Origin: Candidatus Omnitrophota bacterium
Lineage (GTDB): Bacteria > Omnitrophota > Gorgyraeia > JAZDFF01
Reading direction: 5' to 3'
Assembly (NCBI GenBank): GCA_043808095.1
Contig: JAZDFF010000042.1
Span: 38,667 to 102,666 of the forward strand
DNA: 64,000 bases
The position numbers were made by a program, and so were the translations under genes. The notes beneath the pieces are model-generated. The model did no database searches, was not told where the DNA came from, and saw nothing but the letters and a program-made list of their open reading frames with translations. Below, piece by piece: positions 872 through 60,167 of this stretch. Position 1 is the first letter of the stretch; every line of letters begins with the position of its first letter.

Positions 872-876
872 ATTTT

Positions 877-1323
877 CTATGCCTTATAACACCTGTCTAT
901 GGCCTTTTTTATATCCGAGGCGGTAGAGACGAATATCTGTACTTTTGAACCAGTAATCATCTCGATATCTTCAATCGCATCACTATTTAGAGGATTGGAC
1001 ATGGCAAGAGTAATATTATTTCCCAGTTTATCAATACAGATTAAACAGTATTGACGCGCAATATTTTCATTGATGATACGAGCAGTATCATAGTCGATCT
1101 CATAATTTCCCAGAGGTAGATAGGGAAAACCGTATTGGGCGGTTAATGCATGAGCAATATCTTCTTCTTTGGCAAAACCAAGTTCAACTAATATCTCACC
1201 AATAAGGCCGCCCTTTTCCTTTTGCATCTCGAGGGCTTTCTCAAGCTGCTTCTGATTGATGATAGCTCTTTCAATCAACAGCTCCCCTAACTGTTTAGCC
1301 AGTATCTTTTTTAAAGGAGACAT
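877..1323 (-). CDS. stand-alone MshEN / T2SSE_N (GspE N-terminal) domain protein, 148 aa
   Basis: QLGELLIERAIINQKQLEKALEMQ-KEKGG-LIGEILVELGFAKEEDIAHALTAQ fits the tandem 24-residue xLGxxLLxxGxLxxxxLxxxLxxQ motif, with the 5-residue spacer, described for c-di-GMP-binding MshEN domains. Position 1 of each motif is Q/L rather than R. The stop (879..877) lies 5 nt upstream of the pilB-like ATG. Confidence 0.7.
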   Translation of the reverse strand: MSPLKKILAKQLGELLIERAIINQKQLEKALEMQKEKGGLIGEILVELGFAKEEDIAHALTAQYGFPYLPLGNYEIDYDTARIINENIARQYCLICIDKLGNNITLAMSNPLNSDAIEDIEMITGSKVQIFVSTASDIKKAIDRCYKA

Positions 1324-1359
1324 ATTTTAGAACATCTTTTGCACTAAAAACAGAGTTTT

Positions 1360-1480
1360 AATTACTAATTCCTAAATCCTAATGCCTAATTAATTCTTTA
1401 ATGTCCAATTTTAAATTAGTCATTTGAGAATTTATAAATTCATTAGTCATTTGTCATTAGGTATTAAGAATTTTACTTCT
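1360..1480. repeat. family K AT-rich repeat (TAATGCCTAATT / ATTAGTCATTT units)
   Basis: Shares units with 14770..14870 (TCTTAATGCCTAATTT...AATTAGGAATTAGGGCTTAGGCATTAGTCATTTAAT). Confidence 0.6.
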
Positions 1481-1489
1481 TATTTTATC

Positions 1490-25491: not shown

Positions 25492-28113
25492 TTATTTTTG
25501 ATTGCGGATCAGGGTCTTTAATTTTAAAAAGGCTGCCGGAAAATTCGAAGGTATACTGACGCCTGCCTGGGAAAAATCAGGCCGGCCTCCGCCGTTTCCC
25601 CCGACTAGGATAGCGATCTCTTTAATTAATTTTGAGGCATCGATGCCTTTCTCGCAAATACTTTTGGTCACGCCGATAACAAGATTGGTCTCATTGCCTA
25701 AGGCAATTACTGCAGGGTCTATTTTTTCTTTAATTAAGTCTACGGTCCTTCTTAATGAATTCACATCGATATCTTTTCTAAAGCAGGTGATAACGCTAAT
25801 GCCGTTGATTATCTCTGCATTCTTTATCAGGGGATCTATGGAGTTTTTGAGCGCATCGAATTTTTGTCCTTCCAGCTTCTTCTCGAGGTCTTTGGTATAG
25901 GCCTGTTTCTTACTTAATTCCTCGAGGATATAATCTTGTTGGGTATTTAAAAAGGAGGAAATCGAATTTAAAGCATCTTCCTCTTTTTTAATGGTTTTAT
26001 AAGCGAAGCTCCCGGTCTGGGCCTCAATCCTCCTTACGCCGCTTGCTATTGAGCCTTCGTGCACTATTTTAAACAGGCCGATTGTCCCTGTCTGATCAAG
26101 ATGCGTCCCGCCGCAGACCTCAGACGACACGCCAGGGATAGAAACCACCCTTACAGTATCCTCATATTTATCGCCAAAAAATGCCAGAGCCCCTTTTTTT
26201 CTGGCCTCGGTAAGCCTCATCTCTTTCTTTTTCACCTCATAATTGGCCATGATGTAGCTGTTAACTAATTCTTCAATGCGGCTGAGTTGGCTATCGGTTA
26301 TATCTTTAAAATGGGTAAAGTCAAAACGCAATCTATCCTCGGCCACGAGAGAACCCTGCTGCTTGACATGTTCGCCCAGGACCTTTCTTAATGCCGCCTG
26401 CAAAAGATGGGTGGCAGTATGATTCCTGGCAATGGAAAGCCGCCTCTGGCTATCGGTCTTAACCAGAACCAAATCGCCTTTTTTGAATGCCTGGGATTTA
26501 AACCTTCCCTTATGGATTATAATCTTATTGATCTTTTTGGTATCCAGGACTTCAAAGATAATCTTTCCTTTAATTAACTCACCCGTATCTGCGACCTGGC
26601 CGCCGGACTCAGGATAAAATACGGTCTTATCTAAAATGATAGAGGCCTCATCGCCTTTATTAATTTTCTTTATCTGTTGATTATCCTTTACTATCTTAAT
26701 TACCTTGGCCTTGACTTCTTTATCCTTATAGCCCAAGAATTTAGTCTCCTTTATTCCTAAGTGCAGGCCCTTGACATCAAAGACATCGCCCTTCATCCCG
26801 CTTTGTGATTTTGAACGGTTCTTCTGATTTTCTAATTCACGGTCAAAGGCTTCTTGTGAAAATCCTACACCATGGATTTTTAACCAATCTTTAGTTAACT
26901 TAAGCGGTATTCCATAGGTATCATAGAGCTTGAAGGCAAGCAAGCCGACTTGTTCTGGATCATATTTAAGAGGTCTTTCAGTAATAACAGCTAATTTAGA
27001 AAGGCCCTGTTTTATTAAAGCATCACTTGATTCCAGCGTTGAAATAAAACTATCCTCTTCGGATAAAATAATCTCGGAGATATTCTCCCGCCGAGCCTCG
27101 AGTCCGGGATAAGGATTTTTCATCATGCGGCAGACTATTGGCACCAACTTATATAAAAATGGTTTTTCTATTCCCAGCGACATTAAATGTAATACAGATT
27201 TACGGATAAGTTTCCTGATTACGTAGCCGCGTCCTTCATTTGAAGGCAGCACCCCGTCATATATCGCAAACACTATCGCCCGGATATGGTCGGCTACCGC
27301 ATACATAAATTCTTCTTTAGGCGATCTCTTAACATTGGAATATATCTCTTTTACAATCGGACTAAATATATCAATTTCAAAATTACTCGCTACGCCCTGC
27401 ATGACGGCTGCCAGCCTCTCCAGGCCCATACCCGTATCGATATTTTTCTTAGGCAAAGGTTCTAAGGCACCGGCGTCCTTACGATTAAACTGGGTAAAGA
27501 CCAGGTTCCAGACCTCTATAAATCTGCCACAGTCACAAGAAGGGTTACAATCTTTTTTCTTACAACCTATCTCCTCCCCCCGGTCAAAAAATATCTCCGA
27601 GCACGGCCCGCACGGTCCATTTGGCCCAAGTTGTCTTGCCTCAGATGGCCAGAAATTTTCCTTATCTCCTAATTTTATAATTTTTTTTAACGGAACCTTT
27701 ATTTTATCCTTCCAGATTTTATATGTCTCATCATCATCTTTATACACCGAGACAGAAAGTTTATCCTTATCGATTCCGAGCTCCTTGTTTAAGAATTCCC
27801 AAGCCCATAATATCGCCTCATCCTTAAAATAATCTCCGAATGAGAAATTACCCAGCATCTCAAAAAAGGTGTGGTGATACTCGGTCCTACCCACCTTATC
27901 GAGATCATCAGTGCGTAAGCACCTCTGAGAACTTGCCGCCCGGGAAAAATCTCCGATAAAACCCAAGAACTCTTTTTTGAACTGATTCATTCCGGCAGGG
28001 GTAAATAAGACCGTCAGGTCATCGGCGGGAACTAAAGAGTCGCTCTCAACTATCTTGTGTTTCTTAGATTTAAAAAATTCTAAGAATTTATCACGTAGAA
28101 CATCGGTCTTCAT
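25492..28113 (-). CDS. alaS: alanine--tRNA ligase
   Basis: Class II aaRS N-terminal motifs, editing-domain HxxxH...CGG zinc site, C-terminal DHHA1-like region. Length 873 aa. Confidence 0.95.
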   Translation of the reverse strand: MKTDVLRDKFLEFFKSKKHKIVESDSLVPADDLTVLFTPAGMNQFKKEFLGFIGDFSRAASSQRCLRTDDLDKVGRTEYHHTFFEMLGNFSFGDYFKDEAILWAWEFLNKELGIDKDKLSVSVYKDDDETYKIWKDKIKVPLKKIIKLGDKENFWPSEARQLGPNGPCGPCSEIFFDRGEEIGCKKKDCNPSCDCGRFIEVWNLVFTQFNRKDAGALEPLPKKNIDTGMGLERLAAVMQGVASNFEIDIFSPIVKEIYSNVKRSPKEEFMYAVADHIRAIVFAIYDGVLPSNEGRGYVIRKLIRKSVLHLMSLGIEKPFLYKLVPIVCRMMKNPYPGLEARRENISEIILSEEDSFISTLESSDALIKQGLSKLAVITERPLKYDPEQVGLLAFKLYDTYGIPLKLTKDWLKIHGVGFSQEAFDRELENQKNRSKSQSGMKGDVFDVKGLHLGIKETKFLGYKDKEVKAKVIKIVKDNQQIKKINKGDEASIILDKTVFYPESGGQVADTGELIKGKIIFEVLDTKKINKIIIHKGRFKSQAFKKGDLVLVKTDSQRRLSIARNHTATHLLQAALRKVLGEHVKQQGSLVAEDRLRFDFTHFKDITDSQLSRIEELVNSYIMANYEVKKKEMRLTEARKKGALAFFGDKYEDTVRVVSIPGVSSEVCGGTHLDQTGTIGLFKIVHEGSIASGVRRIEAQTGSFAYKTIKKEEDALNSISSFLNTQQDYILEELSKKQAYTKDLEKKLEGQKFDALKNSIDPLIKNAEIINGISVITCFRKDIDVNSLRRTVDLIKEKIDPAVIALGNETNLVIGVTKSICEKGIDASKLIKEIAILVGGNGGGRPDFSQAGVSIPSNFPAAFLKLKTLIRNQK

Positions 28114-28622
28114 TATCCTTGTGTATTTTCGGCCTCTTTTAATTTAGAAAGTCCGGCCAAAACCTCGATAATTACATCCAGAGAAAAACCGCGGCCCACG
28201 AGATAACTAAAAAGCCTTTTCTTAATCTTTAGGGGCTCAAGGCCCTTTAATCTCTTAAGCCTTTGTATGGTAAGGTGCTTCACTACGCTATATTCATCGT
28301 AGTCTTTCTTGAGCTTTTTAACTGAACTTTCAACCAGCTCTTCTTTAATTCCTTTTCGTTTTAATTCAAATTTAAGGCGCCTAAACCCCAAGGGTTTTTT
28401 TAGCCGCGAAGATAACCAAAGCCGGGTAAATTGTTTATCATCAACAAAACCCAAACCCTTGAAATATCTTAAGACTTCTTTAATTATTTTATTATTGTAG
28501 CCTCTTTGCTCTAATTTTCGGATAAGCTCGAAAGAGGCATACATCCTGACCTTGAGCACTCTAAAGATGTATTCTTTGGCCGAAGCGATATCCTTTTTCT
28601 TACTGGATTCTTTAACCTCCAA
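28113..28622 (-). CDS. recX: recombination regulator RecX
   Basis: Repeated three-helix RecX repeats. Sits immediately upstream of alaS in the conserved recA-recX-alaS neighbourhood. Confidence 0.8.
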   Translation of the reverse strand: MEVKESSKKKDIASAKEYIFRVLKVRMYASFELIRKLEQRGYNNKIIKEVLRYFKGLGFVDDKQFTRLWLSSRLKKPLGFRRLKFELKRKGIKEELVESSVKKLKKDYDEYSVVKHLTIQRLKRLKGLEPLKIKKRLFSYLVGRGFSLDVIIEVLAGLSKLKEAENTQG

Positions 28623-28647
28623 TTTACTCTCTACTTTCTACTACTTG

Positions 28648-30165
28648 CTATTTACCCTTTACGATAAGAAAACCGCGATTGGTTTGAACCAAGGCATCGC
28701 CCTGGATATCTTTGGCCACTTTATTAAAATCAGCGGTATTTTTTATTGCCTCTTTATTGATTTCGATAATCACATCTCCGACAACAATCCCTGCCTCATC
28801 AGCGGCAGAGCCGCTGTCTACATCTATAACCACTACTCCCTCTTCGTTTTCAAGTCCAAATTTTCTGGCGATCTGGTCAGTAATATCGCCAACTACCAAA
28901 CCCCTCCAAGACTTGCCGGCAGGACTTCCTTTTTCTGCGTATTTCGTAACATCTTCAGGCCTTTCTCCGACTTCGGCAGAAACCGTAATTTTATTTTTGT
29001 CTCTTAAGACCTCAAGCTGTACTTTCCTGCCTACCTCGGCCTTACCTACGACCTTTAAGAGATCGTTCACGCTAGATACGCGCTCGCCATCAAAACTAAG
29101 GATAATATCTTTGTCTTTGATGCCGGCATTATCCGCCGGACTGTCTTTAAATACCTTTACAATCAAAACACCTTTTTTATCAGGAACGCCAAAATAATCA
29201 GCGAGTTTCTCATCCATGTCCTGGACATTTATCCCTAACCAGCCGTAAAGGATCTTTTTGCCTTCGATGAGTTTACCCAGGATGCGTTTTGCCTGATTAA
29301 TGGGAATGGCAAAGCCGACGCCTTGATAACCGCCGGTTGTAGAAAAGATGGCCACGTTTATAGCAATTACCTCGCCATTAAGATTTACTAAAGGGCCGCC
29401 GGAATTTCCGGGGTTTATGGCGGCATCCGTCTGAATCAAATCAGTATAATCCTTATCCCGGCTCAAGACCCTTCCCAGTGAGCGATGCAATGCGCTGACT
29501 ACGCCAACGGTTACTGTCGGCTCTGGATTTTCCAAGGCAAAACCAAAAGGATTGCCAATGGCAACAACCCACTGGCCGATCTTTACTTTAGCGGAATCAC
29601 CTAATACCGCAACCGGAAGATTATTGGCATCAATCTTTATCACGGCCAAGTCCGAGCGCCTATCTCTGCCTTTAACCTCGCCTTTCAATTCCCTGCCGTC
29701 AGAAAGCGTGACCGTAATTTTATCCGCATCCTGAATCACATGTTCATTAGTCAGGATATATCCGGCAGGATTAATAATAACGCCTGAACCCAGCCCCATG
29801 CGCTTATATTCTCTTTCCGGCATCTCGCCTAAGAAATCATCAAAGAAGCGGCGAAATAACTCATCGCTTCCGAAAGGACTCTCATCAGAGGGCCCTCCTC
29901 GGTAATAGAACTGCCTTCCTCCAACCTTTTCAGTATGCACCGTGCTAATCGACACCACTGCCTTACCTACTTCACTAGCCACAGTCATAGTTGCCTGTTC
30001 AACATCTGGCGAGTCAGACTGTTTGAGGCCGGTCTTAGAGTCGGCATTTAATAGAGGCGAAAGATCAAGTCTTGTCGCAATCAACAAGCCCACAATAATA
30101 CCTAGGGCTAAACTTAAAAAGAAAAATGAGAATTTATGTTCCTTGATTTTTCTGATAATATTCAT
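28648..30165 (-). CDS. periplasmic serine endoprotease DegP/HtrA family with two PDZ domains
   Basis: Signal/anchor, catalytic triad context (TNEHVI, GNSGGPLVNLNGEVI), followed by two PDZ-like domains. Confidence 0.9.
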   Translation of the reverse strand: MNIIRKIKEHKFSFFFLSLALGIIVGLLIATRLDLSPLLNADSKTGLKQSDSPDVEQATMTVASEVGKAVVSISTVHTEKVGGRQFYYRGGPSDESPFGSDELFRRFFDDFLGEMPEREYKRMGLGSGVIINPAGYILTNEHVIQDADKITVTLSDGRELKGEVKGRDRRSDLAVIKIDANNLPVAVLGDSAKVKIGQWVVAIGNPFGFALENPEPTVTVGVVSALHRSLGRVLSRDKDYTDLIQTDAAINPGNSGGPLVNLNGEVIAINVAIFSTTGGYQGVGFAIPINQAKRILGKLIEGKKILYGWLGINVQDMDEKLADYFGVPDKKGVLIVKVFKDSPADNAGIKDKDIILSFDGERVSSVNDLLKVVGKAEVGRKVQLEVLRDKNKITVSAEVGERPEDVTKYAEKGSPAGKSWRGLVVGDITDQIARKFGLENEEGVVVIDVDSGSAADEAGIVVGDVIIEINKEAIKNTADFNKVAKDIQGDALVQTNRGFLIVKGK

Positions 30166-30259
30166 TTTAATCTCCCTTTCATTAAAAACAGTCCTTCACG
30201 AAATTAACCTAAAGGGCTGTTGATTACAGCGATTTAGCCTCGAGTTTTAATCCTTGAAT

Positions 30260-30355
30260 CCCTGGCTGCCCCGAGAAATTCGGAGAATTTCCGGGACTTA
30301 GTCCTTGGAATTTTACAATGTAAAATTCCTAAGGGCCGTCAGGCAGGTATTTTTT
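30260..30355. repeat. ~90-nt palindromic repeat element (family C), copy 2
   Basis: Same sequence as 49429..49517. Sits in the recA-degP gap. Confidence 0.9.
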
Positions 30356-30451
30356 GATCTCTGTAATCAAGGGCGAAACGATACTTCGATTTCACTCAGT
30401 ATTCGTCCTGAGCTTGTCGAAGGACGAATTTGTGAAGCCCTATTAAAAAGA

Positions 30452-31489
30452 TTATTTCTTGGCTAAAAGAGTATCCTTAATCACCTTAATGATCTTATCC
30501 ATCACCTTGGGATTTTCCTTTAAAAAATCCCGGGCCTTATCATGACCCAAGGCCAGTTTTTCGCCTTCAAAGATAAACCAGTTACCTTGTTTCTGGATTA
30601 GGCCGGTGTTAAGACCGGTCTCAAGGACGCTTGAGGACTTGGAGATCCCTTCTTCATGCAGGATCTCAAATTCTGCCTCTTTAAAAGGCGGAGCAACCTT
30701 GTTTTTGACTACCTTTGCCCTTACACGGCTGCCGATAACCGAGTCCCCTGCTTTTACGTGACCGATACGGCGCAGATCCAGCCTCACTGAGGAATAAAAC
30801 TTTAAGGCCCTTCCGCCCGTGGTGGTTTCAGGGTTACCAAAGAATACGCCGATTTTTTCGCGGATCTGGTTGATGAAGACCACGCAGGTCTTGGACTTAC
30901 TGATGACCGCAGTGAGTTTTCTTAAGGCCTGGGACATCAGGCGCGCCTGAAGCCCCATGTGTGCGTCGCCCATCTCGCCTTCAATCTCTGCCCTGGGGGT
31001 GAGTGCGGCTACCGAATCAATGACAATTAAATCCACGGCATTGGAGCGTACCAGGGTCTCGGTAATCTCTAAGGCCTGTTCTCCGGTATCGGGCTGGGAG
31101 ATTAAGAGGTCATCAAGTTTTACTCCTACCTTCTTGGCATAGGTGGCATCAAAGGCATGTTCTGCATCAATAAAGGCAGCTACTCCGCCTTGTCTTTGGA
31201 CCTCGGTAATCACATTTAAGGTAAGCGTGGTCTTACCGGATGCCTCCGGGCCAAAGACCTCAATCACCCGGCCGCGGGGAAAGCCGCCGACTCCTAAGGC
31301 AATATCTAAAGACAATGCCCCTGTAGGAATTACCGGTATATCAAGTCTGGCCTCTTGGCCCAATTTCATAATTGAGCCCTTGCCGAATTGCTTTTCAATT
31401 TGTGTTAGTGCCAGTTCCAGGGCCTTTTGGCGTTCGGAAATATTTTCGGTCTTTACCTCTTTTTCGGGATGGTGTTTTTCTTGGGACAT
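30452..31489 (-). CDS. recA: recombinase RecA
   Basis: Walker [11 protein letters not shown], plus L1/L2 loop regions. Confidence 0.95.
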
Positions 31490-31736
31490 ATTGGGTCCTC
31501 CTTAAAAATTAACCTTATTTAAAAATGAAGGGTTTTCTCCAGGGTTAGGGAATGTATTATACAATATCAAAATTCTAATGTCAATGGTTCGATTGTACTC
31601 ACCATTGATACTGAAACCCTCAACTTCGTTCGGGATGGTGAGCAAAAGGCGAACCAGAGGAATAATGAGCCTGTCGAACCACGAAGTTGAATGTATCAAA
31701 CAGGATTTATACCTTAAAATGGCTGCCAAACACCTC

Positions 31737-31765
31737 TTGACATAAGCAGAATTTTATGTTAAAGT
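31737..31765 (+). promoter_or_regulatory. putative sigma70-like promoter for the GAF-GGDEF gene
   Basis: TTGACA (31737..31742), 17-nt spacer, TAAAGT (31760..31765). If real, the CDS starts at the second Met (31798). Confidence 0.3.
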
Positions 31766-32988
31766 CCCTGCTTATATACCTTAATCAAAACTTGACCATG
31801 CTAAATAACAATATCAATAAAAGTGATATCGAATACGAACTGGAAAAAACTAGATTAGAGCTCTCCATCCTTTATGAGATCTCGAATGCGATGCGCCGCA
31901 CTTTAAAGCTCGATGAGATCCTCTATATCATCTTGACCGGTGTCACCTCCCATGTGGGATTAGGGTTTAACCGGGCGATGTTACTTTTAGTGGATGAAGG
32001 CAGCCAATTCTTAGAAGGCAAGATGGGTATTGGACCAGATACAGGTGATGAGGCAGGCCGCATCTGGAGGCATATTGAGGCTAAGGATATGAAACTCGAG
32101 GATTTAGTTAATGCCTACGAGGCCTCGGGAAAGATGTTTGATTCTCAGTTCAACCGACTGGTACAGAGTTTTAGAATTCCCTTAAAAGAAGACGGCGGAA
32201 TCCTTGCTATTACCGCCTTGGATGACCGACCTATGCATATAAAGAAACAATCCGATGCCTTCTACGATAATGAACCAATCCTAAAAAAATTAAATACCCA
32301 GGAATTTGTCACTGTGCCTTTAAGGGCTAAAGACAGTGTAATTGGTGTGATTCTAGCAGACAACATCTTTACTCAAAGAGAGATTACTAAAGATGATATC
32401 GAGATACTTACATTGTTTTCCAACCAGGCAGGCCTGGCAATCGAAAATTCCCGTCTGTATGAAAAGACCTTAATCAAGACAAATATTGATGCCTTGACCG
32501 GCCTGTGGAACCATGGTTATTTCCAGTTTAAACTTAACGAGGAAATAAAAAAGGTAAAAGAACAAACTCATCCCCTAAATCTAATTATGATAGATATTGA
32601 TTACTTTAAGAATTATAATGATGGCCTAGGACATCAAGAAGGAGACCGCATCTTAGTAGAGATAGCTAAGGTCTTAAAGGATTCTTCGAGAAAATCAGAT
32701 TATGTATGCAGATATGGTGGTGAGGAATTTGCTATAATCCTGCCGCAGACGACAAAACAGGAGGCGCTCTTACTTTCGGAAAGAATTAGGCAGCATGTCC
32801 AGAATCATCGTTTTAAACATGAAGAAATCCAGCCAGAAAAAGAAATCACGGTAAGTATTGGCCTGGCGACTTTTCCTGAAGACGCACAAACAAAAGATCA
32901 GCTTATTTCTTGCGCGGATACTTCGCTTTACGAGGCTAAAAAGACGGGAAAAAACAAAGTCTGTTATTACTCTGCAGTAAAAATCTAA
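31756..32988 (+). CDS. cytoplasmic GAF-domain diguanylate cyclase (GGDEF with canonical RYGGEEF and RxxD I-site)
   Basis: GAF-like N-terminal region. DALTGLWNHGYFQ...RKSDYVCRYGGEEFAIILP has both an intact active site and an I-site. The true start may be the second Met at 31798, because the first ATG overlaps the putative -10. The 3' end overlaps the smc 3' end convergently by 4 nt. Confidence 0.85.
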   Translation: MLKSLLIYLNQNLTMLNNNINKSDIEYELEKTRLELSILYEISNAMRRTLKLDEILYIILTGVTSHVGLGFNRAMLLLVDEGSQFLEGKMGIGPDTGDEAGRIWRHIEAKDMKLEDLVNAYEASGKMFDSQFNRLVQSFRIPLKEDGGILAITALDDRPMHIKKQSDAFYDNEPILKKLNTQEFVTVPLRAKDSVIGVILADNIFTQREITKDDIEILTLFSNQAGLAIENSRLYEKTLIKTNIDALTGLWNHGYFQFKLNEEIKKVKEQTHPLNLIMIDIDYFKNYNDGLGHQEGDRILVEIAKVLKDSSRKSDYVCRYGGEEFAIILPQTTKQEALLLSERIRQHVQNHRFKHEEIQPEKEITVSIGLATFPEDAQTKDQLISCADTSLYEAKKTGKNKVCYYSAVKI

Positions 32989-35900
32989 TTAACTTTTTCT
33001 ACTTCTAAATTTTGGCCATCCTTGGAAGAACCTGTAGTGATTCCCTTCTTAGGCTTATGATCGGCAAATTTTACCGAAACAATTTTTGAAACCCCGGACT
33101 CCTGCATAGTTATTCCATACATTACATCCGCATGGGCAATTGTCTTTTTATTATGGGTAATCACGATAAACTGGGAGGTCTTGGTGAATTCCTTCAAAAG
33201 CCTTCCAAAACGACTGACATTAGACTCATCCAGGGCGCTGTCAATCTCGTCCAGTACGCAGAATGGCGAGGGTTTAATCTTAAATATGGAAAATATTAAC
33301 GCAATGGCGGAAAGCGCCTTTTCTCCGCCTGATAAAAGCGAGACATTCTGGAGTTTCTTGCCCGGAGGCTGGCATATAATTTCAATTCCCGACTCTAACA
33401 CATCTTCAGGATCAATAAGGATAAGTTTGGCGTCTCCTCCGCCAAAAAGGAGTTTAAAATAATTGCGGAACTCTGCTTCAATTTTCTGGAAGGTCTCAGT
33501 AAACATCTTGCGGGTAGTCTGGTTAATCTTGGTGATGGCCTTATGAAGCGAGTCTTTGGCAGTAAGTAAATCCTCCTGTTGTTTAGTAAGAAACTCAAAC
33601 CTGGTCTTTAACTCCTCATGCTCCTCAATTGCTACCAGGTTCACAGTCCCAAAATTATCGACCTTGGTTTTTAACTCATTAATCTGATTATTTAAAACAG
33701 TAGGGTCTATACCTCTATCCAATTGAACGGTTGAGCCGTCAATATCAACTTTATAGGTATTTAAGAGCCTCTCTTTTAAACTCATCCTCCTAAAATTTAT
33801 ATCCTGGCCGTGCATCTGTAAGTTATGAAGTTCGGATTTAATTTTTTCGCTTACTTCCTTTACCTTCTGAATCTCTGCTGCACTTGCCTTGACCAACTCA
33901 ATATAATTTTCTTTGTTCTTTTCAATCTCCTTAAAATCCCGGTCTAACTCTTGAAAATTTAGGTTTGTTTTTTTAATGTCCTCTTCTAAACCAATAATCT
34001 CATCCTCCAACTCTTTTTTCTTAGTGAATATGCCTTTAATTTCTTTTTCAATTGAGGCTAATGCCATTTCGTCCTGACTGACAGTATCCGAGAGTAACTT
34101 AAAAGTATTCGATATCGAGGAACGCTTATCCACAAAAGAATTTATCTGGACTTCAATCTGGGTTATTTCAATTAAGACATTTTGGTTATTTTCTTGGTAT
34201 TGGGTGATTAAGTTTTGACTATTTTCTATTTCGAGCTTGGTCTTGTCTTCTTCTACTTCCCAAAGATTAAGTAGGGAGTTAGCCTCATTAACCTTTTTCG
34301 CCAGGGAGTCGATATTGCCGTTGGTTTCACTTAGCTCATCACCAACCAATGTGACTTCGCTTTCCAATTTATCTAACTGCTCTTTTATATTATCTTTCTG
34401 ATTTAGCGAATTTGCTACTTGTAATTCTTGAGCCCGGGATTTAGCCTGGAGGGCTTTAACTTGTGCTAAGAACTGTTCTAGGTTTAGCTCCTGTGCCTGT
34501 TTTTCGGCATTGGCCTGGCCCAATTTATTTTCCGTTTGATCAAGCCTGGATTGAATTGCCTTTACATCTAACGGGATGAGCTTTATCTCGCAATTGGCTC
34601 CAGAAAGTTCTGCAATATTAGTAAAATGAGATTTGAGCATCTGTTTATGCCCAGGGGAAATATCAAAAGAATCAATCACCTTACCGATAAATCCGGCCTC
34701 ACCCGAAGGGATTTTTCCTTCGCTAAAGATAACGGCCCTTAATTTTTGAGGCATCTCGTCATATTTTGATTTAAGCCCCGAGAGAAATTCTTTTTGCGAC
34801 TGGAGCATGGATTTTTCTTTATCCAGCAAGATGATGTCCTCTTTTAGTAAATTGAGCCTGTTTTTTTGTTCCTCGATATTATGCTCAAGATTTCTACATG
34901 CCTCCTGTAATTGTCCAAAGGCATTTTCATTATCCTCATGCTGCGAAACCGCACTATTGTATTTTTCCTGTACCTGGCTTAGCTCTTCCCTGGTCTTAGC
35001 CAATTCTAAATCGAGTCGGCGCTTACGTGCCATTAAAACTGACATTTCTGAATTGAACCGATTAATCTCATTTCTTGCCTTGGTGATTTGAGTGGCTAAA
35101 TCTAAGAGTCTGGGCTGAGATTTGGTAATTCTATTTTTGGCATCTTTGGTCTTTAGGTCAAGGTCGGCCACAAGAATTTGTCTTTCCTTTAGGGCAATCT
35201 GTTTTTGGGATTGTAATTTCTCTTGGGATTCTAATTCTTTAGAGACAGCATCTAGGTTCTTTCTCTGCTGCAAGATTCTTTCTTGTATTTGTTTCTTTTG
35301 TTGTTCTAAGTCGCCGGTCCTTGCCAGTTCATCCTGGATGCGCTCTTTATTTAAGCTTATGTGTTGTCTGTCGCGCTCAATGGTACCTTCAATCCTTAGG
35401 TGTTCGGACTGAATTTGACTGGTTTTTCTATTCAGCCCTTCCAGTTCCTCCTGGGTCTTGGTATATTTTTTCTCAAACTCACCCATAGAAAGTGCCTGGG
35501 CATTATTTTTATCTTGGAAGTCTTTTATTCTGCCCTCAAGTTCATCCTGCTGGTTCTTTAAAAGATCAATCTCAAAGGCGGCCAGTTTCACTTCCGCCTC
35601 TTTTAGGCGCTCATACAGCTCCTGATAACGCTTAGCCCGCTGGGCCTGACGTTCCACAGAGGTAATTTGGCGTTTAATCTCGGTGATGATATCACTGACC
35701 CTCAGGAGGTTATTATCTGTATCTTCTAATTTTCTTAAGGCCTCTCTTTTTTTAGATTTATAAAGGGTAATGCCGGCCGCCTCATCAAAAATGAGGCGCC
35801 GGTCCTCAGGTCTGGAGCTTAAGACAAGATCAATTTTACCCTGTTCAACCAGGGAATAGGATTCGCTGGTAATACCGGTGCCTAAAAATAATTCCGTGAT

Positions 35901-36269
35901 GTCTTTTAGCCTTACCGGATTTTTATTAATCAGGTATTCGCTCTCACCTGAGCGAAAGATACGGCGAGTAATCACCACTTCCTCATATTCAATAGGCAGG
36001 AATTTATTTTCGTTAGAAAACATCAAAGATACCTCTGCAAAACCGAGGCTCGGTTTAGTAGTGGTTCCGTTAAAGATTACGTCTTCCATCTTCGAACCGC
36101 GTAGCGACTTTATTGACTGTTCGCCCAAGACCCAGCGGATGGAATCAAAGATATTACTCTTGCCGCAGCCATTGGGTCCGACGACCGCCGTTATGCCCGG
36201 CTCAAAATTAAGGACTGTCTTGTCGGCAAAGGATTTAAAACCGATTAGTTCTAACTTTTTAAAATACAT
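32985..36269 (-). CDS. smc: chromosome partition protein SMC
   Basis: N-terminal Walker A GPNGCGKSN, long coiled coils, hinge, C-terminal LSGGEKALSAIAL signature and Walker B. Confidence 0.95.
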   Translation of the reverse strand: MYFKKLELIGFKSFADKTVLNFEPGITAVVGPNGCGKSNIFDSIRWVLGEQSIKSLRGSKMEDVIFNGTTTKPSLGFAEVSLMFSNENKFLPIEYEEVVITRRIFRSGESEYLINKNPVRLKDITELFLGTGITSESYSLVEQGKIDLVLSSRPEDRRLIFDEAAGITLYKSKKREALRKLEDTDNNLLRVSDIITEIKRQITSVERQAQRAKRYQELYERLKEAEVKLAAFEIDLLKNQQDELEGRIKDFQDKNNAQALSMGEFEKKYTKTQEELEGLNRKTSQIQSEHLRIEGTIERDRQHISLNKERIQDELARTGDLEQQKKQIQERILQQRKNLDAVSKELESQEKLQSQKQIALKERQILVADLDLKTKDAKNRITKSQPRLLDLATQITKARNEINRFNSEMSVLMARKRRLDLELAKTREELSQVQEKYNSAVSQHEDNENAFGQLQEACRNLEHNIEEQKNRLNLLKEDIILLDKEKSMLQSQKEFLSGLKSKYDEMPQKLRAVIFSEGKIPSGEAGFIGKVIDSFDISPGHKQMLKSHFTNIAELSGANCEIKLIPLDVKAIQSRLDQTENKLGQANAEKQAQELNLEQFLAQVKALQAKSRAQELQVANSLNQKDNIKEQLDKLESEVTLVGDELSETNGNIDSLAKKVNEANSLLNLWEVEEDKTKLEIENSQNLITQYQENNQNVLIEITQIEVQINSFVDKRSSISNTFKLLSDTVSQDEMALASIEKEIKGIFTKKKELEDEIIGLEEDIKKTNLNFQELDRDFKEIEKNKENYIELVKASAAEIQKVKEVSEKIKSELHNLQMHGQDINFRRMSLKERLLNTYKVDIDGSTVQLDRGIDPTVLNNQINELKTKVDNFGTVNLVAIEEHEELKTRFEFLTKQQEDLLTAKDSLHKAITKINQTTRKMFTETFQKIEAEFRNYFKLLFGGGDAKLILIDPEDVLESGIEIICQPPGKKLQNVSLLSGGEKALSAIALIFSIFKIKPSPFCVLDEIDSALDESNVSRFGRLLKEFTKTSQFIVITHNKKTIAHADVMYGITMQESGVSKIVSVKFADHKPKKGITTGSSKDGQNLEVEKVN

Positions 36270-36271
36270 AT

Positions 36272-36637
36272 TTACCTACCTTGTATTTCCGCAAGAGACC
36301 GAAAGATATATTTAGAAAGCCTCTGTCGATCGGCATCAGATATCTGGCTAAATTCAATTCCTGCCTCAAGATGCGAAGCTTTATCACCTTCCCCCATGTC
36401 AAACTTTTCTATCCAGACTACCCTTCCCCTTGCCTGAATTGGCAGGACCTCTTCCTTGATATAAATCTTTAACCCTAAAACCGTCCCTTTATCAATCATC
36501 TTATCCAGAAACAGGCAAATCCCACCCATACTTATATTTTTAGTGGTAGAGCCCAATCCATCACCGGCCTTTTCAATTATCGCATATTCAACTTTCACTA
36601 AGGTATTGAGTCGGACAAAACGTCTTCTCTCTTCCAT
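36272..36637 (-). CDS. PilZ-domain protein (c-di-GMP receptor family), 121 aa
   Basis: RRRFVR (RxxxR) and NISMGG (D/NxSxxG) motifs with PilZ spacing. Its stop lies 2 nt upstream of the smc ATG. Confidence 0.75.
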   Translation of the reverse strand: MEERRRFVRLNTLVKVEYAIIEKAGDGLGSTTKNISMGGICLFLDKMIDKGTVLGLKIYIKEEVLPIQARGRVVWIEKFDMGEGDKASHLEAGIEFSQISDADRQRLSKYIFRSLAEIQGR

Positions 36638-36819
36638 TTCAGCCTCGCTTTTTTAATCGCTTCCCGCCCATCAGCTGGATCCCGCATCTTCGGAAAACAC
36701 AGAGCGGGAAAAACGCAAAATCACTTTTGGCAATACCTATACCGCTAAGGCCGCCAAATTTTTTCTTTGCGTTCTTGGCGAAGTTTCTAATAATTACCTT
36801 TTTTTGCGTTCTTTGCGGT

Positions 36820-38019
36820 TCACTTTTTATGAAGTTGACCAAATCTCTTGGTTAATAATGGAACTATCTGAAATAAATCACCCACTACTCCAAGGGTGGC
36901 AATCTTAAATATGGGCGCAGAGGGATCTTTATTAATGGCGATTATCGTTTTAGAAGACTGCATGCCTACTAAATGCTGGATCTGACCGGAGATCCCGCAG
37001 GCGATATATATCTTGGGGGCCACAGTCCTTCCGGTCTGACCTACCTGATGCGAATAAGGCATCCAGTCGCTGTCAACTGCAGCGCGCGATGCGCCGACTG
37101 CCCCGCCTAAAACCTTAGCCAACTCCTCTAAAATTTTAAAATTTTCAGGCCCACCCATGCCGCGGCCGCCTGAAACAATAATATCTGCCTCAGATAAATT
37201 CACCGTGGCTTCTATCTCATCGATGATATCTAATAATTTTGTCCGGCTTCTAAGCATATCACCGTCAAAGTTTTCGCTGATGACCCTGCCTTTTCGCTTC
37301 ATGTCGATAGGCAAGTCGGGGAAAACCTTGTGTCTTACTGTAGCCATCTGCGGCCGATAATTAGGCGAGATAATCGTAGCCATGATGTTTCCGCCAAATG
37401 CCGGCCGGGTCTGAAGTAGTATCTTTTTTTGAGGCTCAATATCTAAACCTGTACAGTCTGCAGTCAGCCCCGCCATGATTTTAACTGCCACCCGCGAGAT
37501 CAAAGAGCGGCCGATAAAAGTTGCTCCGCATAAAACAATCTCGGGCTTATATTTTTTGATTAACTCAACCAGTACATTGGTATAAGGCTCATCCTGGAAA
37601 TTAGCCAACTCTCTGCTCTCGACCACATAGACCTTATCTGCGCCACGCCAGATTAATTCCTGGACCTCTTCTTCCAAATGATCACCCAATAATACTGCCG
37701 AGACGTCCGTGCTTAAGGAAGCGGCCAATTCCCTGGCCTTTGCCAGCAACTCATAAACTACGGATTGGACCTTACCCTTTTTCTGCTCGGCAAAGATCCA
37801 TACGCCTTTGTAATCCTTAAAATCCGTCAATTTAGCCTTGTCCTCTTTTTCTAAAAAGATGGCCTTAAATTTACAACTCGGCACGCAGGCGCCGCAGAGA
37901 GTGCATTTATTTAAGTCAATAACCGCCTTTTTATCAAGAATCCTTATGGCATCAAAAGGGCAGGCCTTAAGGCACAGGCTGCAACCGTTGCATTTTTCAA
38001 TTATGATCTGGATCGGCAT
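36820..38019 (-). CDS. etfA: electron transfer flavoprotein alpha subunit with N-terminal 2x[4Fe-4S] ferredoxin domain
   Basis: N-terminal CNGCSLCLKACP and CTLCGACVPSC cluster motifs, then the ETF-alpha FAD-binding fold (ACGISGQIQHLVGM). Confidence 0.85.
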   Translation of the reverse strand: MPIQIIIEKCNGCSLCLKACPFDAIRILDKKAVIDLNKCTLCGACVPSCKFKAIFLEKEDKAKLTDFKDYKGVWIFAEQKKGKVQSVVYELLAKARELAASLSTDVSAVLLGDHLEEEVQELIWRGADKVYVVESRELANFQDEPYTNVLVELIKKYKPEIVLCGATFIGRSLISRVAVKIMAGLTADCTGLDIEPQKKILLQTRPAFGGNIMATIISPNYRPQMATVRHKVFPDLPIDMKRKGRVISENFDGDMLRSRTKLLDIIDEIEATVNLSEADIIVSGGRGMGGPENFKILEELAKVLGGAVGASRAAVDSDWMPYSHQVGQTGRTVAPKIYIACGISGQIQHLVGMQSSKTIIAINKDPSAPIFKIATLGVVGDLFQIVPLLTKRFGQLHKK

Positions 38020-38043
38020 CTTAAAATAAGTAAATCCATTTTA

Positions 38044-38187
38044 CACAGATGGGCACAGATTATCCCGCACCAAAATAAAAAAAATCCAGCGGGATCCCGC
38101 TATGGCGGGAAAAGAAACAGATGGGCACAGATATTTCTCGTCGGAATCTGTGCTAATCTGCGAGCCTTTCATCTGTGCTAATCTGTG
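38044..38187. repeat. family F repeats (ACAGATGGGCACAGAT and ATCTGTGCTAATCTG units) with an embedded family A REP
   Basis: ACAGATGGGCACAGAT at 38044..38060 and 38117..38132. ATCTGTGCTAATCTG x2 at 38146..38187. Same units at 47030..47150. Confidence 0.85.
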
Positions 38188-38208
38188 AAACATTATTTTT
38201 AATGTTTA

Positions 38209-38991
38209 TCAACTCATTGCCTCTTTTAAAAACTCGGCTAACTTATCGGCTAAATCCTGCGGCTCGCCCTCAAGGACTTGGCCGCCGGCCCGAGGCTTGG
38301 GCGTAAAAATTTTCACCACTTGGGTAGGCGAACCATCAAGGCCGATGCTATCGGGGTCAGCCGAAATATCTTCGGCCTTCCAGGAAATTATCTTGGCCTG
38401 CTTTGCGCGCAAAAGATTTTTTAAAGAGGGCAGTCGCGGCGTGTTTATCTCTTTGACCACCGTAAGTAATGCCGGAAGAGGCGTCTCTATTATTTCATAA
38501 CCTTCCTCAGTCATCCTCTCGACTCGTGCCGAGCCATCTTTAATTCCTTCAATCTTTTTCACATAGGTGACCTGGGGGATATCTAAATGCGCCGAAATCC
38601 CCGGCCCGACTTGAGCCGTATCTCCGTCTGAGGCCTGCTTTCCGCAAAGAATAATATCAAACTGACCGATCTTTCTAATGGCGGTGGCTAAGGTATAACT
38701 GGTCGCCCAGGTATCACTTCCTGCGAATGCGCGGTCAGAAATAAGGATCGCTTCATCAATACCCATGGAGATTGCTTCTCTTAAGGCAGAATCGGCTTGC
38801 GGCGGGCCCATGGTAATTACTGTAGCCTTACCAGAAAATTTTTCTTTTAAGCGTACTGCCTCTTCAATCGCATACATATCAAAAGGATTAATGATAGATT
38901 TTACCCCTTCGCGGATTAAGGTATTTGTTTCGGGGTTAATCTTTACATCCGTGGTTTCCGGAACCTGTTTTATACAGACGATGATGTGCAT
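38209..38991 (-). CDS. etfB: electron transfer flavoprotein beta subunit
   Basis: MHIIVCIKQVPETTDVKI start typical of EtfB/FixA. The 24 upstream codons in the ORF-track call overlap a CGGATG repeat array and were trimmed. Confidence 0.85.
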   Translation of the reverse strand: MHIIVCIKQVPETTDVKINPETNTLIREGVKSIINPFDMYAIEEAVRLKEKFSGKATVITMGPPQADSALREAISMGIDEAILISDRAFAGSDTWATSYTLATAIRKIGQFDIILCGKQASDGDTAQVGPGISAHLDIPQVTYVKKIEGIKDGSARVERMTEEGYEIIETPLPALLTVVKEINTPRLPSLKNLLRAKQAKIISWKAEDISADPDSIGLDGSPTQVVKIFTPKPRAGGQVLEGEPQDLADKLAEFLKEAMS

Positions 38992-39000
38992 ATCTATAAG

Positions 39001-39079
39001 CGGATGCAGACGGATTTTAGCGGATTCAAACGGATAAATTTCATCCGCGACATCCGTAACCATCTGTTTGCATCCGTGG
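39001..39079. repeat. family G CGGATG/CATCCG array
   Basis: CGGATGCAGACGGATTTTAGCGGATTCAAACGGATAAATTTCATCCGCGACATCCGTAACC...CATCCGTGG. A related array at 62304..62396 also holds a family B palindrome. Confidence 0.75.
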
Positions 39080-39134: not shown

Positions 39135-40313
39135 TCACCTTTTCCTGCTTTCTTTGATTAATCGCAAGGCAATGATGTTACGCTGAATCTGGTTTGTGCC
39201 TTCGTAAATCTGGGTAATCTTGGCATCGCGCATAAACTTCTCTATCGGATAGTCGCGCATATAGCCGTATCCGCCAAAGATCTGCACGGCATCAGTGGAG
39301 ACCTTCATGGCTACATCCGAGGCAAATAGTTTAGCCATTGCAGATTCCTTAGAGACATCAGTCTTTCCGCTGTCAACCATACGGGCAACAGAATAGACCA
39401 AGGCCCGGGCCGCCTCAACCTCTGTCGCCATATCCGCGAGCATAAATTGAATCCCCTGGAAGCTGGAAATAGATTTTCCGAACTGCACCCTCTCTCTGCT
39501 ATATTCAACGGCTAAGTCCAAAGCCCCCTGGGCAATGCCCACTGCCTGGGCTGCAACTCCGGGCCGGGACATGTCAAAGGTCTTCATGGTAACAATAAAA
39601 CCCATGCCCTCTTTAGACAGGAGATTTTCTTTAGGGACTTTACAGTCATTAAAAATTAATTCCCGGGTAGATGAGGCCCGAATTCCCATCTTCTCTTCCT
39701 TTTTGCCGAAGGTAAATCCTGGCGTATCTTTCTCAACGATGAATGCCGAAGCGCCTCGCGCGCCTTTTGTCTTATCGGTCATGGCAATAATCGTGTAAGT
39801 CTCGGCGTCACCGCCATTCGTAATAAAATGTTTCGTGCCGTTTAGGATATAATAGTCTCCGCTTTTTTTGGCAGTAGTCGCAACCGCCGATGCATCTGAA
39901 CCAGCTGCAGGTTCGGTCAGGCCAAAGGCAGCCAATTTTTCACCGCGGGCTAAAGCCAGCAGGTATTTTTTCTTTTGCTCGTCATTACCGAAAAGTATAA
40001 TCGGAAATGTCCCTAAGGCACTGGCTGCATAACTTACCGCCACCCCGCCGCAGGCGCGCGATAACTCCTCGGTAACCAGGCAAAGATTCAATACCCCGCC
40101 ACCGGCATGACCCGGAGGATTAACCAAGGTGCCGCCGTAGGCCTCAGGCACAAAAATAGTAAATAAATCTGACTGGGCTAAAATCTTGATGATCTCCCAG
40201 GGAAACTTCTCTGTCTTATCGAGTTCAGCTGCCGCAGGCTTAATTTTCTCCTGGGCGATCTTTCTTGCCAGGTCCCTAATCATCAGTTGCTCTTCGTTCA
40301 AAAGGTAATCCAT
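39135..40313 (-). CDS. acyl-CoA dehydrogenase (short-chain / butyryl-CoA dehydrogenase-like)
   Basis: ACAD N, middle and C domains; the catalytic-base region YEGTNQIQR lies near the C-terminus. Confidence 0.85.
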   Translation of the reverse strand: MDYLLNEEQLMIRDLARKIAQEKIKPAAAELDKTEKFPWEIIKILAQSDLFTIFVPEAYGGTLVNPPGHAGGGVLNLCLVTEELSRACGGVAVSYAASALGTFPIILFGNDEQKKKYLLALARGEKLAAFGLTEPAAGSDASAVATTAKKSGDYYILNGTKHFITNGGDAETYTIIAMTDKTKGARGASAFIVEKDTPGFTFGKKEEKMGIRASSTRELIFNDCKVPKENLLSKEGMGFIVTMKTFDMSRPGVAAQAVGIAQGALDLAVEYSRERVQFGKSISSFQGIQFMLADMATEVEAARALVYSVARMVDSGKTDVSKESAMAKLFASDVAMKVSTDAVQIFGGYGYMRDYPIEKFMRDAKITQIYEGTNQIQRNIIALRLIKESRKR

Positions 40314-40391: not shown

Positions 40392-40751
40392 TTATAGGTT
40401 ACTTTCAGAAGTTTTAACAATAGAAGTTAGTATCTTTATGATAATTTCAATTTCATCTAATAAAGACTTAATTTTGGAGTTACTAATCAATTCCGAGAAC
40501 AAAACTAATCTTAACCAATATCTTGTTTCTCTGGCCTCTTTCTTTGCTATATTCATACAATTTGTAAATTCTTTCTTTGTTCTTGCTCCCGTAGCTTCTT
40601 CTACATTCGCACCAATAGAAGTACCGGCTTTTAAAAGTTGCCTTCCTAATTCGAAACCAGCCGTATTTTCTGGTAAAAGTTTGACTAATTTGACGACTTC
40701 TATAGTAAAGTCAAATGTTCTTTCTTTAATTTTTTTCTCTTTTTCACTCAT
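40392..40751 (-). CDS. four-helix-bundle protein (TIGR02436; '23S rRNA intervening-sequence protein'-like)
   Basis: ERTFDFTIEVVKLVKLLP...GRQLLKAGTSIGANVEEA...ARETRYWLRL matches the IVS-protein family consensus. Flanked by short inverted repeats. Confidence 0.75.
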   Translation of the reverse strand: MSEKEKKIKERTFDFTIEVVKLVKLLPENTAGFELGRQLLKAGTSIGANVEEATGARTKKEFTNCMNIAKKEARETRYWLRLVLFSELISNSKIKSLLDEIEIIIKILTSIVKTSESNL

Positions 40752-59042: not shown

Positions 59043-60044
59043 TTATTTAGCTTCTCTTAAGTACTTAGCAGCCATTTCTGGCGGCGTTGACACGATATAA
59101 AAACCTGTCCCCCATTCAAAACCTGCGGTCCTGGCAAGGCGCGGCATAATCTCAAGATGCCAGTGATATCCGCCTTCTTTATCCGGATCATCTAAAATTG
59201 GTGAAGTATGGATGATGAAATTGTAAGATGGGTCGTTTAGAGTTACCCTGATTCTTCTTAGGGTCTCTTTTAGAACCTTGGCCATATCGGATATCTCTTC
59301 ATTAGTAATATGAAAGAAATATGGGTTGTGTTTTTTGGGGACAATCCAGGTCTCAAACGCAAATCTTGAGACGAACGGGCAGAAAGCCAAAAAATGTTTT
59401 GATTCCAAAACTAAGCGCCCTTTATCCTGCATCTCCTGGGACATGATATCGCAGAAAATGCAGCGCTCTCTGAATTCAAAATAATCTAAGGAACCCTTGA
59501 TTTCCTCAGCAACATTCTTGGGTATCATAGGAAGCGCAATGAGTTGCGAGTGCGGATGGGTAAGAGATGCCCCGGCAGATAATCCGTAATTTTTAAAGAC
59601 CAAGGTATATTTAAACCGTTTATCACGCAACAAATCAATAGCCCGACGACAGTACATATGTATGATATCGTCTACTTCTTGGTCAAGAAGATCAGGTATG
59701 TTCTTGTGATGATAAGGGGTTTCAATAATTACCTCGTGAGCACCAATACCGTTAGACATATCAAAGATTCCTACGCCGCGCCTGGCCAAATCGCCCTCAA
59801 CCTGTAAGGCCGGGAATTTATTCGGTACGACTCTCACCGTCCAACCAGGGGTATTCGGGCTGGTCCTTGAATCCCGCACTGCCTCTATTTCAGGAGGAGT
59901 CTGAGCTTCGTTTCCGTAACAAAAAGGACACTTATCATCCTTGACAGGATGCATTTCCGTTTCGAAATCTTGCGGCTTTTTGGGCTCATCAGTTTCTACA
60001 ATTACCCAGCGGGCGACTATAGGATCTTTTCTTAATTCTGCCAA
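59043..60044 (-). CDS. galT: galactose-1-phosphate uridylyltransferase-family (HIT branch) enzyme, canonical HPH active site
   Basis: CPFC zinc motif and THPHSQLIALP active-site motif. Confidence 0.8.
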   Translation of the reverse strand: MAELRKDPIVARWVIVETDEPKKPQDFETEMHPVKDDKCPFCYGNEAQTPPEIEAVRDSRTSPNTPGWTVRVVPNKFPALQVEGDLARRGVGIFDMSNGIGAHEVIIETPYHHKNIPDLLDQEVDDIIHMYCRRAIDLLRDKRFKYTLVFKNYGLSAGASLTHPHSQLIALPMIPKNVAEEIKGSLDYFEFRERCIFCDIMSQEMQDKGRLVLESKHFLAFCPFVSRFAFETWIVPKKHNPYFFHITNEEISDMAKVLKETLRRIRVTLNDPSYNFIIHTSPILDDPDKEGGYHWHLEIMPRLARTAGFEWGTGFYIVSTPPEMAAKYLREAK

Positions 60045-60063
60045 ATTAAGGCCTCCTTAATGA

Positions 60064-60110
60064 GCCCCTGCCGCTTTGATTCGCTTTGCTCATCAAAGCG
60101 AATCAGCAGG
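60064..60110. repeat. family H nested hairpin, inverted copy, between the two galT paralogs
   Basis: CCCCTGCCGCTTTGATTCGCTTTGCTCATCAAAGCGAATCAGCAGGGG. Confidence 0.9.
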
Positions 60111-60167
60111 GGGGATAAATCAGACATACAATTTACGTTCACTTCGTTCCGTAAATTGTGTCTTCAT

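Follow-up and report, generated by a model that had tools for sequence, protein, structure and literature searches.

A stand-alone PilZ gene and a diguanylate cyclase gene beside smc in a gene string conserved across Omnitrophota

In a Candidatus Omnitrophota bacterium, the gene for the condensin subunit SMC lies between two genes predicted to act in cyclic di-GMP (c-di-GMP) signaling: pilZ, immediately upstream of smc and coding for a stand-alone PilZ-domain protein, and dgc, which converges on the 3′ end of smc and codes for a GAF-GGDEF diguanylate cyclase. We analyzed these genes within a 64,000-nucleotide (nt) stretch of contig JAZDFF010000042.1, referred to here as the window (Table 1), and compared them with ~170 related DNA stretches, whose loci carry labels beginning with L. 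A first-pass annotation made from the window sequence had described a 121-amino acid (aa) PilZ protein ending 2 nt before the smc start codon, cyclase and smc stop codons that overlap by 4 nt, and a 266-bp divergent region between recA and the cyclase gene, and we find all of these as described, the last when measured from the annotated dgc ATG. The PilZ and GAF-GGDEF domain calls are also right, with the PilZ motifs, the GGEEF motif and the I-site intact, and dgc is indeed the only gene of the window on the plus strand, with 51 of the 52 assignable genes on the minus strand. This smc-flanking context of a PilZ protein and a cyclase is undescribed, and it is largely synteny-driven.

Table 1. 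Positions of the features discussed, numbered from the first letter of the window
Feature	Coordinates	Strand	Remarks
Second c-di-GMP module	2-2908		PilB-like T2SSE ATPase with MshEN (cut by the window edge), stand-alone 148-aa MshEN protein, HAMP-GAF-GGDEF protein
recA	30452-31489	-	Pfam RecA, 1.3e-137
Divergent recA/dgc control region	31490-31755		266 bp to the annotated dgc ATG
recA promoter, sigma-70-type	31556-31584	-	TTGACA-17-TATAAT; 12/12, a consensus match only
dgc promoter-like site	31737-31765	+	TTGACA-17-TAAAGT, upstream TG; 10/12, a consensus match only
dgc	31756-32988	+	GAF-GGDEF diguanylate cyclase; 410 aa as annotated (396 aa if the start is 31798)
RxxD I-site of dgc	32689-32700	+	RKSD, residues 312-315, five residues upstream of GGEEF
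GGEEF of dgc	32716-32730	+	Residues 321-325
smc/dgc end overlap	32985-32988		CTAA, 4 nt: TAG of smc, TAA of dgc
smc	32985-36269	-	1094 aa; Pfam SMC_N, TIGR02168
Walker B of SMC	33228-33257	-	VLDEIDSALD
Signature motif of SMC	33312-33335	-	LSGGEKAL
Short segment replacing the hinge	34566-34757	-	SMC residues ~505-568; ~65 aa, non-conserved, joins the two arms
Walker A of SMC	36156-36179	-	GPNGCGKS
pilZ-smc spacer	36270-36271	-	2 nt (AT); pilZ TAA 36272-36274, smc ATG 36267-36269
pilZ	36272-36637	-	121 aa, stand-alone PilZ-domain protein
NxSxxG motif of PilZ	36521-36538	-	N34-I-S36-M-G-G39
RRxxxR motif of PilZ	36611-36628	-	R4R5xxxR9
etfA-pilZ spacer	36638-36819	-	182 nt
Repeat (A)A(G/A)AACGCAAA	36709-36813		Three copies (two direct, one inverted) in 105 nt of the etfA-pilZ spacer
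etfA, with N-terminal ferredoxin domain	36820-38019	-	Pfam and NCBIfam matches
etfB	38209-39063	-	Pfam and NCBIfam matches
acd	39135-40313	-	Open reading frame (ORF) translation matches acyl-CoA dehydrogenases annotated by Pfam in L081 (87% identity) and L083

The PilZ protein matches Pfam PilZ (PF07238) with 57.8 bits against a cut-off of 22.5 (E = 1.5e-15), residues 3-113 spanning positions 1-102 of the 102-position model. Proteins of the PilZ family bind c-di-GMP through RxxxR and (D/N)xSxxG motifs; both are present, and they are invariant or nearly so among 13-15 relatives, with R5, R9, S36 and G39 invariant in the relatives' alignment. An AlphaFold2 (AF2) model, with a mean predicted local distance difference test score (pLDDT) of 79.7, is a five-strand beta-barrel with a C-terminal helix, and a Foldseek search with this model returned the PilZ domains of MotI/DgrA, YcgR and MrkH as best matches, with a probability of 1.00 and a template-modeling (TM) score of about 0.5 to those of MotI and YcgR. 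Among solved structures, its nearest relatives are the PilZ domains of Bacillus subtilis MotI/DgrA (5vx6) and Escherichia coli YcgR (5y6g), although similarity to the solved PilZ proteins is marginal at the sequence level (E = 0.06 to YpfA/MotI). Judged by sequence and predicted fold, the protein is an ordinary family member with intact motifs and a predicted c-di-GMP receptor. It shares with stand-alone PilZ adaptors such as MapZ/PA4608 its size, both motifs, the barrel plus helix and the lack of any other domain; its setting between etfA and smc is a context not described for MapZ/PA4608, MotI/DgrA or YcgR.

The product of dgc matches Pfam GGDEF (2.1e-52) and GAF (2.7e-11), and is predicted to be an active diguanylate cyclase with an intact active site. 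All 27 smc-linked dgc orthologues compared, which are 44-58% identical to the window protein, keep GGEEF and RxxD without change. The catalytic domain is like those of WspR and PleD, and the protein shares with I-site GAF-GGDEF cyclases the GGEEF motif, an RxxD five residues upstream of it, and a GAF sensor at the N terminus. Among NCBIfam equivalogs DgcA (NF041606) is nearest, but the score of 177 bits falls short of the cut-off of 370, so that the protein is not DgcA. Unlike known GAF-GGDEF cyclases, it belongs to a family of its own with a fixed position convergent with smc; the family comprises at least 2316 protein clusters at E ≤ 1e-60, the named clusters among the 120 listed all come from Omnitrophota, and members among the matches listed have 55-76% identity over about 390 aa. 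Because the dgc promoter-like site overlaps the annotated ATG and the orthologues start about 14 residues later, the real start may be Met15 at 31798, which would extend the divergent region to 308 bp. On the other side of this region, recA has an AGGAGG ribosome-binding site; htrA lies between recA and recX in the window (28113-30165), and in L171 recA and recX are adjacent.

The first-pass annotation had taken the 2-nt gap between pilZ and smc to imply co-transcription and coupled translation. Co-transcription is likely, but the gap itself is not unusual, as 12 of the 51 same-strand neighbor pairs in the window lie ≤5 nt apart, including the unrelated lgt/rluD and recX/alaS. On the upstream side of pilZ, we found no promoter-like or terminator-like site on the coding strand of the 182-nt etfA-pilZ spacer, and an Rfam E-value scan of positions 30000-38500 gave chance-level matches only, with no riboswitch ahead of pilZ or between recA and dgc. 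The corresponding spacer in relatives is 18-284 nt by ORF coordinates in seven contigs (among them L002, L081, L084-L086 and L088), the shortest being that of L002, and the etfA and PilZ matches are 40 nt apart in L091 and 25 nt apart in L092. Since the spacer covers this range in relatives and shows neither a terminator nor a riboswitch, pilZ probably belongs to a longer transcript, as opposed to forming a two-gene unit with smc alone; some relatives, at least, probably transcribe it together with etfBA. Three further candidates in this segment were rejected. A structured RNA in the 182-nt spacer is not supported by its folding (z = -1.3). A separate pilZ-smc unit bounded by a terminator and promoter finds no such sites on the coding strand, where site counts do not exceed those of shuffled sequence. 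The three local copies of the AAGAACGCAAA repeat are not significant, as 17 of 100 window shuffles match as many.

We surveyed smc loci in one genome per species, obtaining 80 loci of which 38 are from Omnitrophota or are Omnitrophota-like (including bins that have the same gene block but are labelled 'Planctomycetia') and 42 are from other phyla; all were annotated with the window's own proteins and a PilZ profile. The Omnitrophota loci share a gene string that runs glgC-like, GNAT, acd, etfB, etfA, in some cases pilZ and a helix-turn-helix (HTH) gene, and smc, followed by the convergent dgc and then recA, recX, alaS and his genes; dgc is sometimes followed by recA and htrA. L171 repeats about 17 kb of the window order, from the glgC-like gene to hisD. 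A dgc orthologue converges on smc and ends ≤160 nt from its stop in 26 of the 32 Omnitrophota(-like) loci with enough downstream sequence, compared with none of 32 loci from other phyla, and both contigs that were reached from the dgc side (one of them L171) also have the pairing. The distance between the two stops ranges from -9 to +159 nt over the 26 loci, and ten pairs overlap, by 4-9 nt. The smc-cyclase pairing is thus much better conserved than is visible from the window sequence alone. Among testable loci of Omnitrophota species representatives it is second in conservation only to etfB-etfA (21/21), which code for two subunits of one enzyme; etfA is followed by smc within 700 nt in 20 of 31, acd by etfB in nine of 15, and dgc diverges from recA in five of the 20 Omnitrophota loci with enough flank. 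At the median gap, only a few nucleotides lie between smc and dgc, so that the pair is hard to separate without a break that would damage a gene, and the near-absence of intergenic DNA alone can preserve it.

The distribution of pilZ is much patchier across these loci. When 98 small ORFs lying on the smc strand no more than 1 kb upstream of the gene in the 80 loci were scanned with Pfam, PilZ was found in only three loci, all from Omnitrophota; none of the upstream small ORFs in the 42 loci of other phyla codes for PilZ, in agreement with the first-pass statement that a PilZ gene beside smc is not a standard arrangement. A second scan, of metagenome sequences and seeded by a PilZ alignment, yielded 80 loci, and 99 relatives were placed in a neighbor-joining tree. 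The survey of smc neighborhoods that the first-pass annotation had proposed shows the adjacency to be conserved in some relatives: PilZ lies directly upstream of smc in the window and in L002, L081, L084, L085, L088, L091 and L092, and L086 is consistent with the order etfA-PilZ-smc, its contig ending just past PilZ. The gap to smc is 2 nt in the window and L084, 6 nt in L085, 9 nt in L088, 15 nt in L002, about 25 nt in L092, about 80 nt in L091, and 189 nt in L081. The smc-adjacent PilZ sequences form one clade (clade A, with eight members including that of the window), L088 branching elsewhere. L091 has the PilZ-smc arrangement without a cyclase, and most Omnitrophota with the smc-dgc pair have no PilZ near smc. 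In L031, the nearest of the species representatives (73% SMC identity across the first 256 residues), the slot is filled by an HTH gene and PilZ is absent.

A second and larger PilZ clade of about 21 sequences, separate from clade A, occupies a different position in the string. These genes lie between acd and etfB, about 2 kb from smc, in 17 metagenome contigs (L095, L096, L100-L103, L105, L107-L109, L112, L114, L122, L123, L127, L139 and L165) and in L083 and L171, in some cases with two copies in tandem; contigs with sufficient flank read acd-PilZ-etfB-etfA-HTH-smc. This placement may be a hint that c-di-GMP is linked to the Acd/EtfAB module, a connection that is apparently undescribed. Other arrangements are rarer: PilZ-HTH-smc occurs in L003, L019 and L136, another gene separates PilZ from HTH in L021, and PilZ lies downstream of smc or dgc in L007 and L018. 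About 55 PilZ relatives from the metagenome scan are in unrelated contexts.

The SMC protein encoded next to pilZ has an unusual structure of its own. It scores 888.6 bits against TIGR02168 (SMC_prok_B; cut-off 567.35) and shares with the canonical Smc of Smc-ScpAB the head motifs and the arm lengths. It differs from canonical Smc in the center of the protein, where a non-conserved segment stands in place of the expected hinge: SMC_hinge (PF06470) gave no match at E ≤ 0.01 with the whole protein, nor at E ≤ 10 with its central 267 aa, whereas the long SMCs of other Omnitrophota match it (2e-23 in L030 and 2e-18 in L046). When short and long SMCs are aligned, about 100 residues are missing from the center and the arm lengths are kept; in place of the ~170-aa canonical hinge there is a segment of ~65 aa. 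A search with the central fragment returned no homologues at E ≤ 1e-5, and AF2 was therefore run from the single sequence; the arms are confident helices in this model, and segment 505-568 has a pLDDT of 43-69. The hinge-bearing SMCs of other Omnitrophota are positional orthologues of the window protein, and we reject an SMC paralogue (Rad50, RecN or MukB-like) on the same ground, together with its passing of TIGR02168. In B. subtilis, a laboratory construct in which the Smc hinge was exchanged for the Rad50 zinc hook is described as a functional chimera (PMC5344682). Neither scpA nor scpB was found among the annotated genes of the window.

Hinge-less short SMCs of about 1060-1115 aa are also encoded in L002, L005, L008, L010 and L026, and a normal hinge is kept in L030 and L036 at the same syntenic position. 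The spirochaete SMC of L017 (995 aa) likewise has no Pfam hinge match, and the other spirochaete SMCs of the data set are similarly short, at 930-1012 aa. An intein is present in the SMC gene of L009 (4231-9246), in frame within Walker A, with the junctions GPNGCGK/CLHY and VHN/SN and a LAGLIDADG-like segment; inteins are probably also present in L040, L041 and L109, with L009 being the one whose sequence was read. The SMC of L011 has an insertion of ~500 aa at another site.

The slot between etfA and smc is variable in its content. Where it is empty, with no PilZ, etfA and smc can be separated by as little as -1, 0, 1, 1 and 3 nt (L026, L014, L010, L030 and L050, respectively); elsewhere the slot holds an HTH_17 gene, an acyl carrier protein gene (L001, L170) or a gene for a 23S-rRNA-intervening-sequence protein (L029). 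The HTH_17 gene, coding for a protein of ~60 aa of the excisionase family (NCBIfam 'excise'), immediately precedes smc in 11 of the 38 Omnitrophota(-like) loci, all with short SMCs (among others L008:4237-4419, L018:2750-2935, L003:2481-2765, L022:137-388 and L171:12503-12682), and in six further contigs (L102, L105, L109, L112, L136 and L171); the window lacks it. Slot genes of either kind, PilZ or HTH, are found only in the short-SMC clade, a restriction that may reflect shared ancestry.

We lean, with confidence a little above even, toward the view that there is no dedicated link between PilZ and SMC, and that their adjacency reflects inherited synteny together with genome compaction. Tight spacing at smc carries little functional information, because etfA abuts smc where PilZ is absent and because close spacing is common in the window; the same spacing logic, applied to etfA and smc, would couple an electron-transfer flavoprotein (ETF) to condensin. 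Gene order gives no indication of the PilZ partner, and a PilZ-SMC partnership is unsupported. The first-pass annotation had seen in the adjacency of a dedicated receptor a hint of second-messenger control of chromosome organization or segregation. This step is not supported, as etfA is equally tight to smc, PilZ is more often in the acd-etfB slot, the slot before smc is permissive, and L031 lacks PilZ; the adjacency is not specific, and general synteny and packing can account for it.

In the scenario of inherited synteny and compaction, a c-di-GMP pair, consisting of a GAF-sensor cyclase with a product-inhibition site and a single-domain PilZ protein, would be embedded in a housekeeping string inherited across Omnitrophota. 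The cyclase gene would be a core gene of the phylum that has abutted the smc 3′ end since early in Omnitrophota, and in the window lineage PilZ would fill the variable etfA-smc slot as the penultimate cistron of a co-directional acd-etfBA-pilZ-smc run. We infer from its motifs that the cyclase, once its GAF domain adopts the activating state, would make c-di-GMP, subject to feedback inhibition at RxxD, and that PilZ, in the manner of stand-alone PilZ adaptors, would bind c-di-GMP via RRxxxR and NxSxxG before engaging a partner protein. The second c-di-GMP module in the window means that dgc is not the only cyclase and that there are other plausible outputs for PilZ.

Several observations weigh against a purely syntenic explanation. 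The smc-dgc pair (81%) is better kept than acd-etfB (60%), whose products are real functional partners. In clade A, PilZ is directly after etfA in all eight members and directly before smc in seven, the eighth (L086) being at a contig edge, and this adjacency holds down to 45-47% SMC identity, with a gap of 2-15 nt in five. The occurrence of two independent PilZ lineages alongside a cyclase in the same block seems to exceed chance, with the density of PilZ genes per genome uncalibrated. There is also a precedent in CdbS of Myxococcus, reported as a stand-alone PilZ protein that perturbs chromosome organization (PMC10313047).

These same observations lend something to the idea that PilZ is a dedicated c-di-GMP-dependent adaptor of SMC, with the ratio of the two proteins fixed by translational coupling and dgc supplying the signal, so as to tune compaction or segregation. 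Short gaps of this kind recur in relatives (2, 6, 9 and 15 nt in L084, L085, L088 and L002), clade A is monophyletic and smc-adjacent wherever flank is present, the cyclase converges on smc in most loci, PilZ and HTH slot genes occur only in the clade with hinge-less SMC, and CdbS (PMC10313047) offers its precedent. We nonetheless regard such an adaptor as unlikely: most Omnitrophota with the smc-dgc pair, L031 among them, have no PilZ near smc, L091 has PilZ-smc and no cyclase, etfA lies equally close to smc in loci lacking PilZ, sister PilZ genes occupy the position between acd and etfB, and the convergent smc and dgc share no transcript. The broader proposal that c-di-GMP feeds into condensin, with dgc signaling and PilZ (or HTH in other genomes) acting as an accessory or loading factor of the hinge-less SMC, strikes us as improbable. 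No direct link of PilZ or GGDEF proteins to SMC was found in the papers searched, and neither is mentioned in two Omnitrophota genome surveys.

It is similarly doubtful that PilZ belongs to an acd-etfBA operon and links c-di-GMP to the redox module, with smc as a downstream bystander, even though every PilZ gene in the etfA-smc or acd-etfB slot touches an etf gene: PilZ is directly before etfB in the 17 metagenome contigs and in L083, L171 and L037, and directly after etfA in clade A, L088, L019, L021 and L136, with a spacer that can be as short as the 18 nt of L002. L003 has PilZ-HTH-smc without etfA within 2 kb upstream, in L007 and L018 PilZ follows smc or dgc, and the synteny caveat applies here as it does for SMC; the one paper matched in the literature deals, judging by title and abstract, with the extracellular proteome of Rhizobium etli. 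A link between smc and dgc could instead be at the RNA level, each gene dampening the other through transcriptional interference or antisense RNA, since convergent overlapping ends leave no room for a terminator and each transcript must enter the other gene. The gap or overlap is between -9 and +9 nt in 16 of the 26 loci, no terminator-like site lies between smc and dgc in the window (the nearest candidate on the strand of smc lies about 490 nt into dgc), and dgc is the sole opposite-strand gene in 64 kb. Yet the other ten loci have gaps of 20-159 nt, which are enough for a terminator, and terminator-like sites in the region are no commoner than in shuffled sequence (11 versus 9.8), so that we give this arrangement very little credence.

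A related described system, CdbA/CdbS of Myxococcus xanthus (PMC7156744, PMC10313047), differs from the window locus in several respects. The authors of PMC10313047 raise possible interference of CdbS with SMC or ParABS, and report its function to be independent of c-di-GMP binding. CdbS acts together with CdbA, a ribbon-helix-helix protein, and with PilZ-DnaK chaperones; the window locus shows none of these, and no ribbon-helix-helix (CdbA-like) gene is present in the neighborhood of pilZ-smc. The window PilZ protein scores 44.8 bits against TIGR02266, a model of Myxococcus PilZ paralogues, below its cut-off of 68.7, and, unlike the window pilZ, cdbS is not reported to be linked to smc in the sections of the CdbS work consulted.

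Among the other features of the window, the extreme strand bias extends over positions 1-64000, and GC skew is negative in nearly all 2-kb bins, which places the window within one replichore. A gene for a 23S-rRNA-intervening-sequence protein (a four-helix bundle) adjoins acd (40392-40751); the same Pfam family is found in the etfA-smc slot of L029 (5619-5975). Two tandem paralogues resembling galactose-1-phosphate uridylyltransferase (GalT/DUF4921) are present at 59043-61190.

These comparisons document a conserved Omnitrophota gene string in which a core cyclase gene is fixed against smc and which also contains two PilZ lineages. They also carry a caution, in that tight spacing is a poor guide to function in compact, strand-biased genomes, those of Omnitrophota being small (0.86-3.2 Mb; PMC10066038), and the etfA-smc junction serves as an internal control. 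The natural hinge-less SMC is perhaps of more interest to SMC specialists than pilZ is. Should PilZ prove to act on SMC, a bacterial condensin would for the first time be seen to be under direct second-messenger control, and the finding would provide a way into the cell-cycle control of an uncultured, ultra-small phylum.

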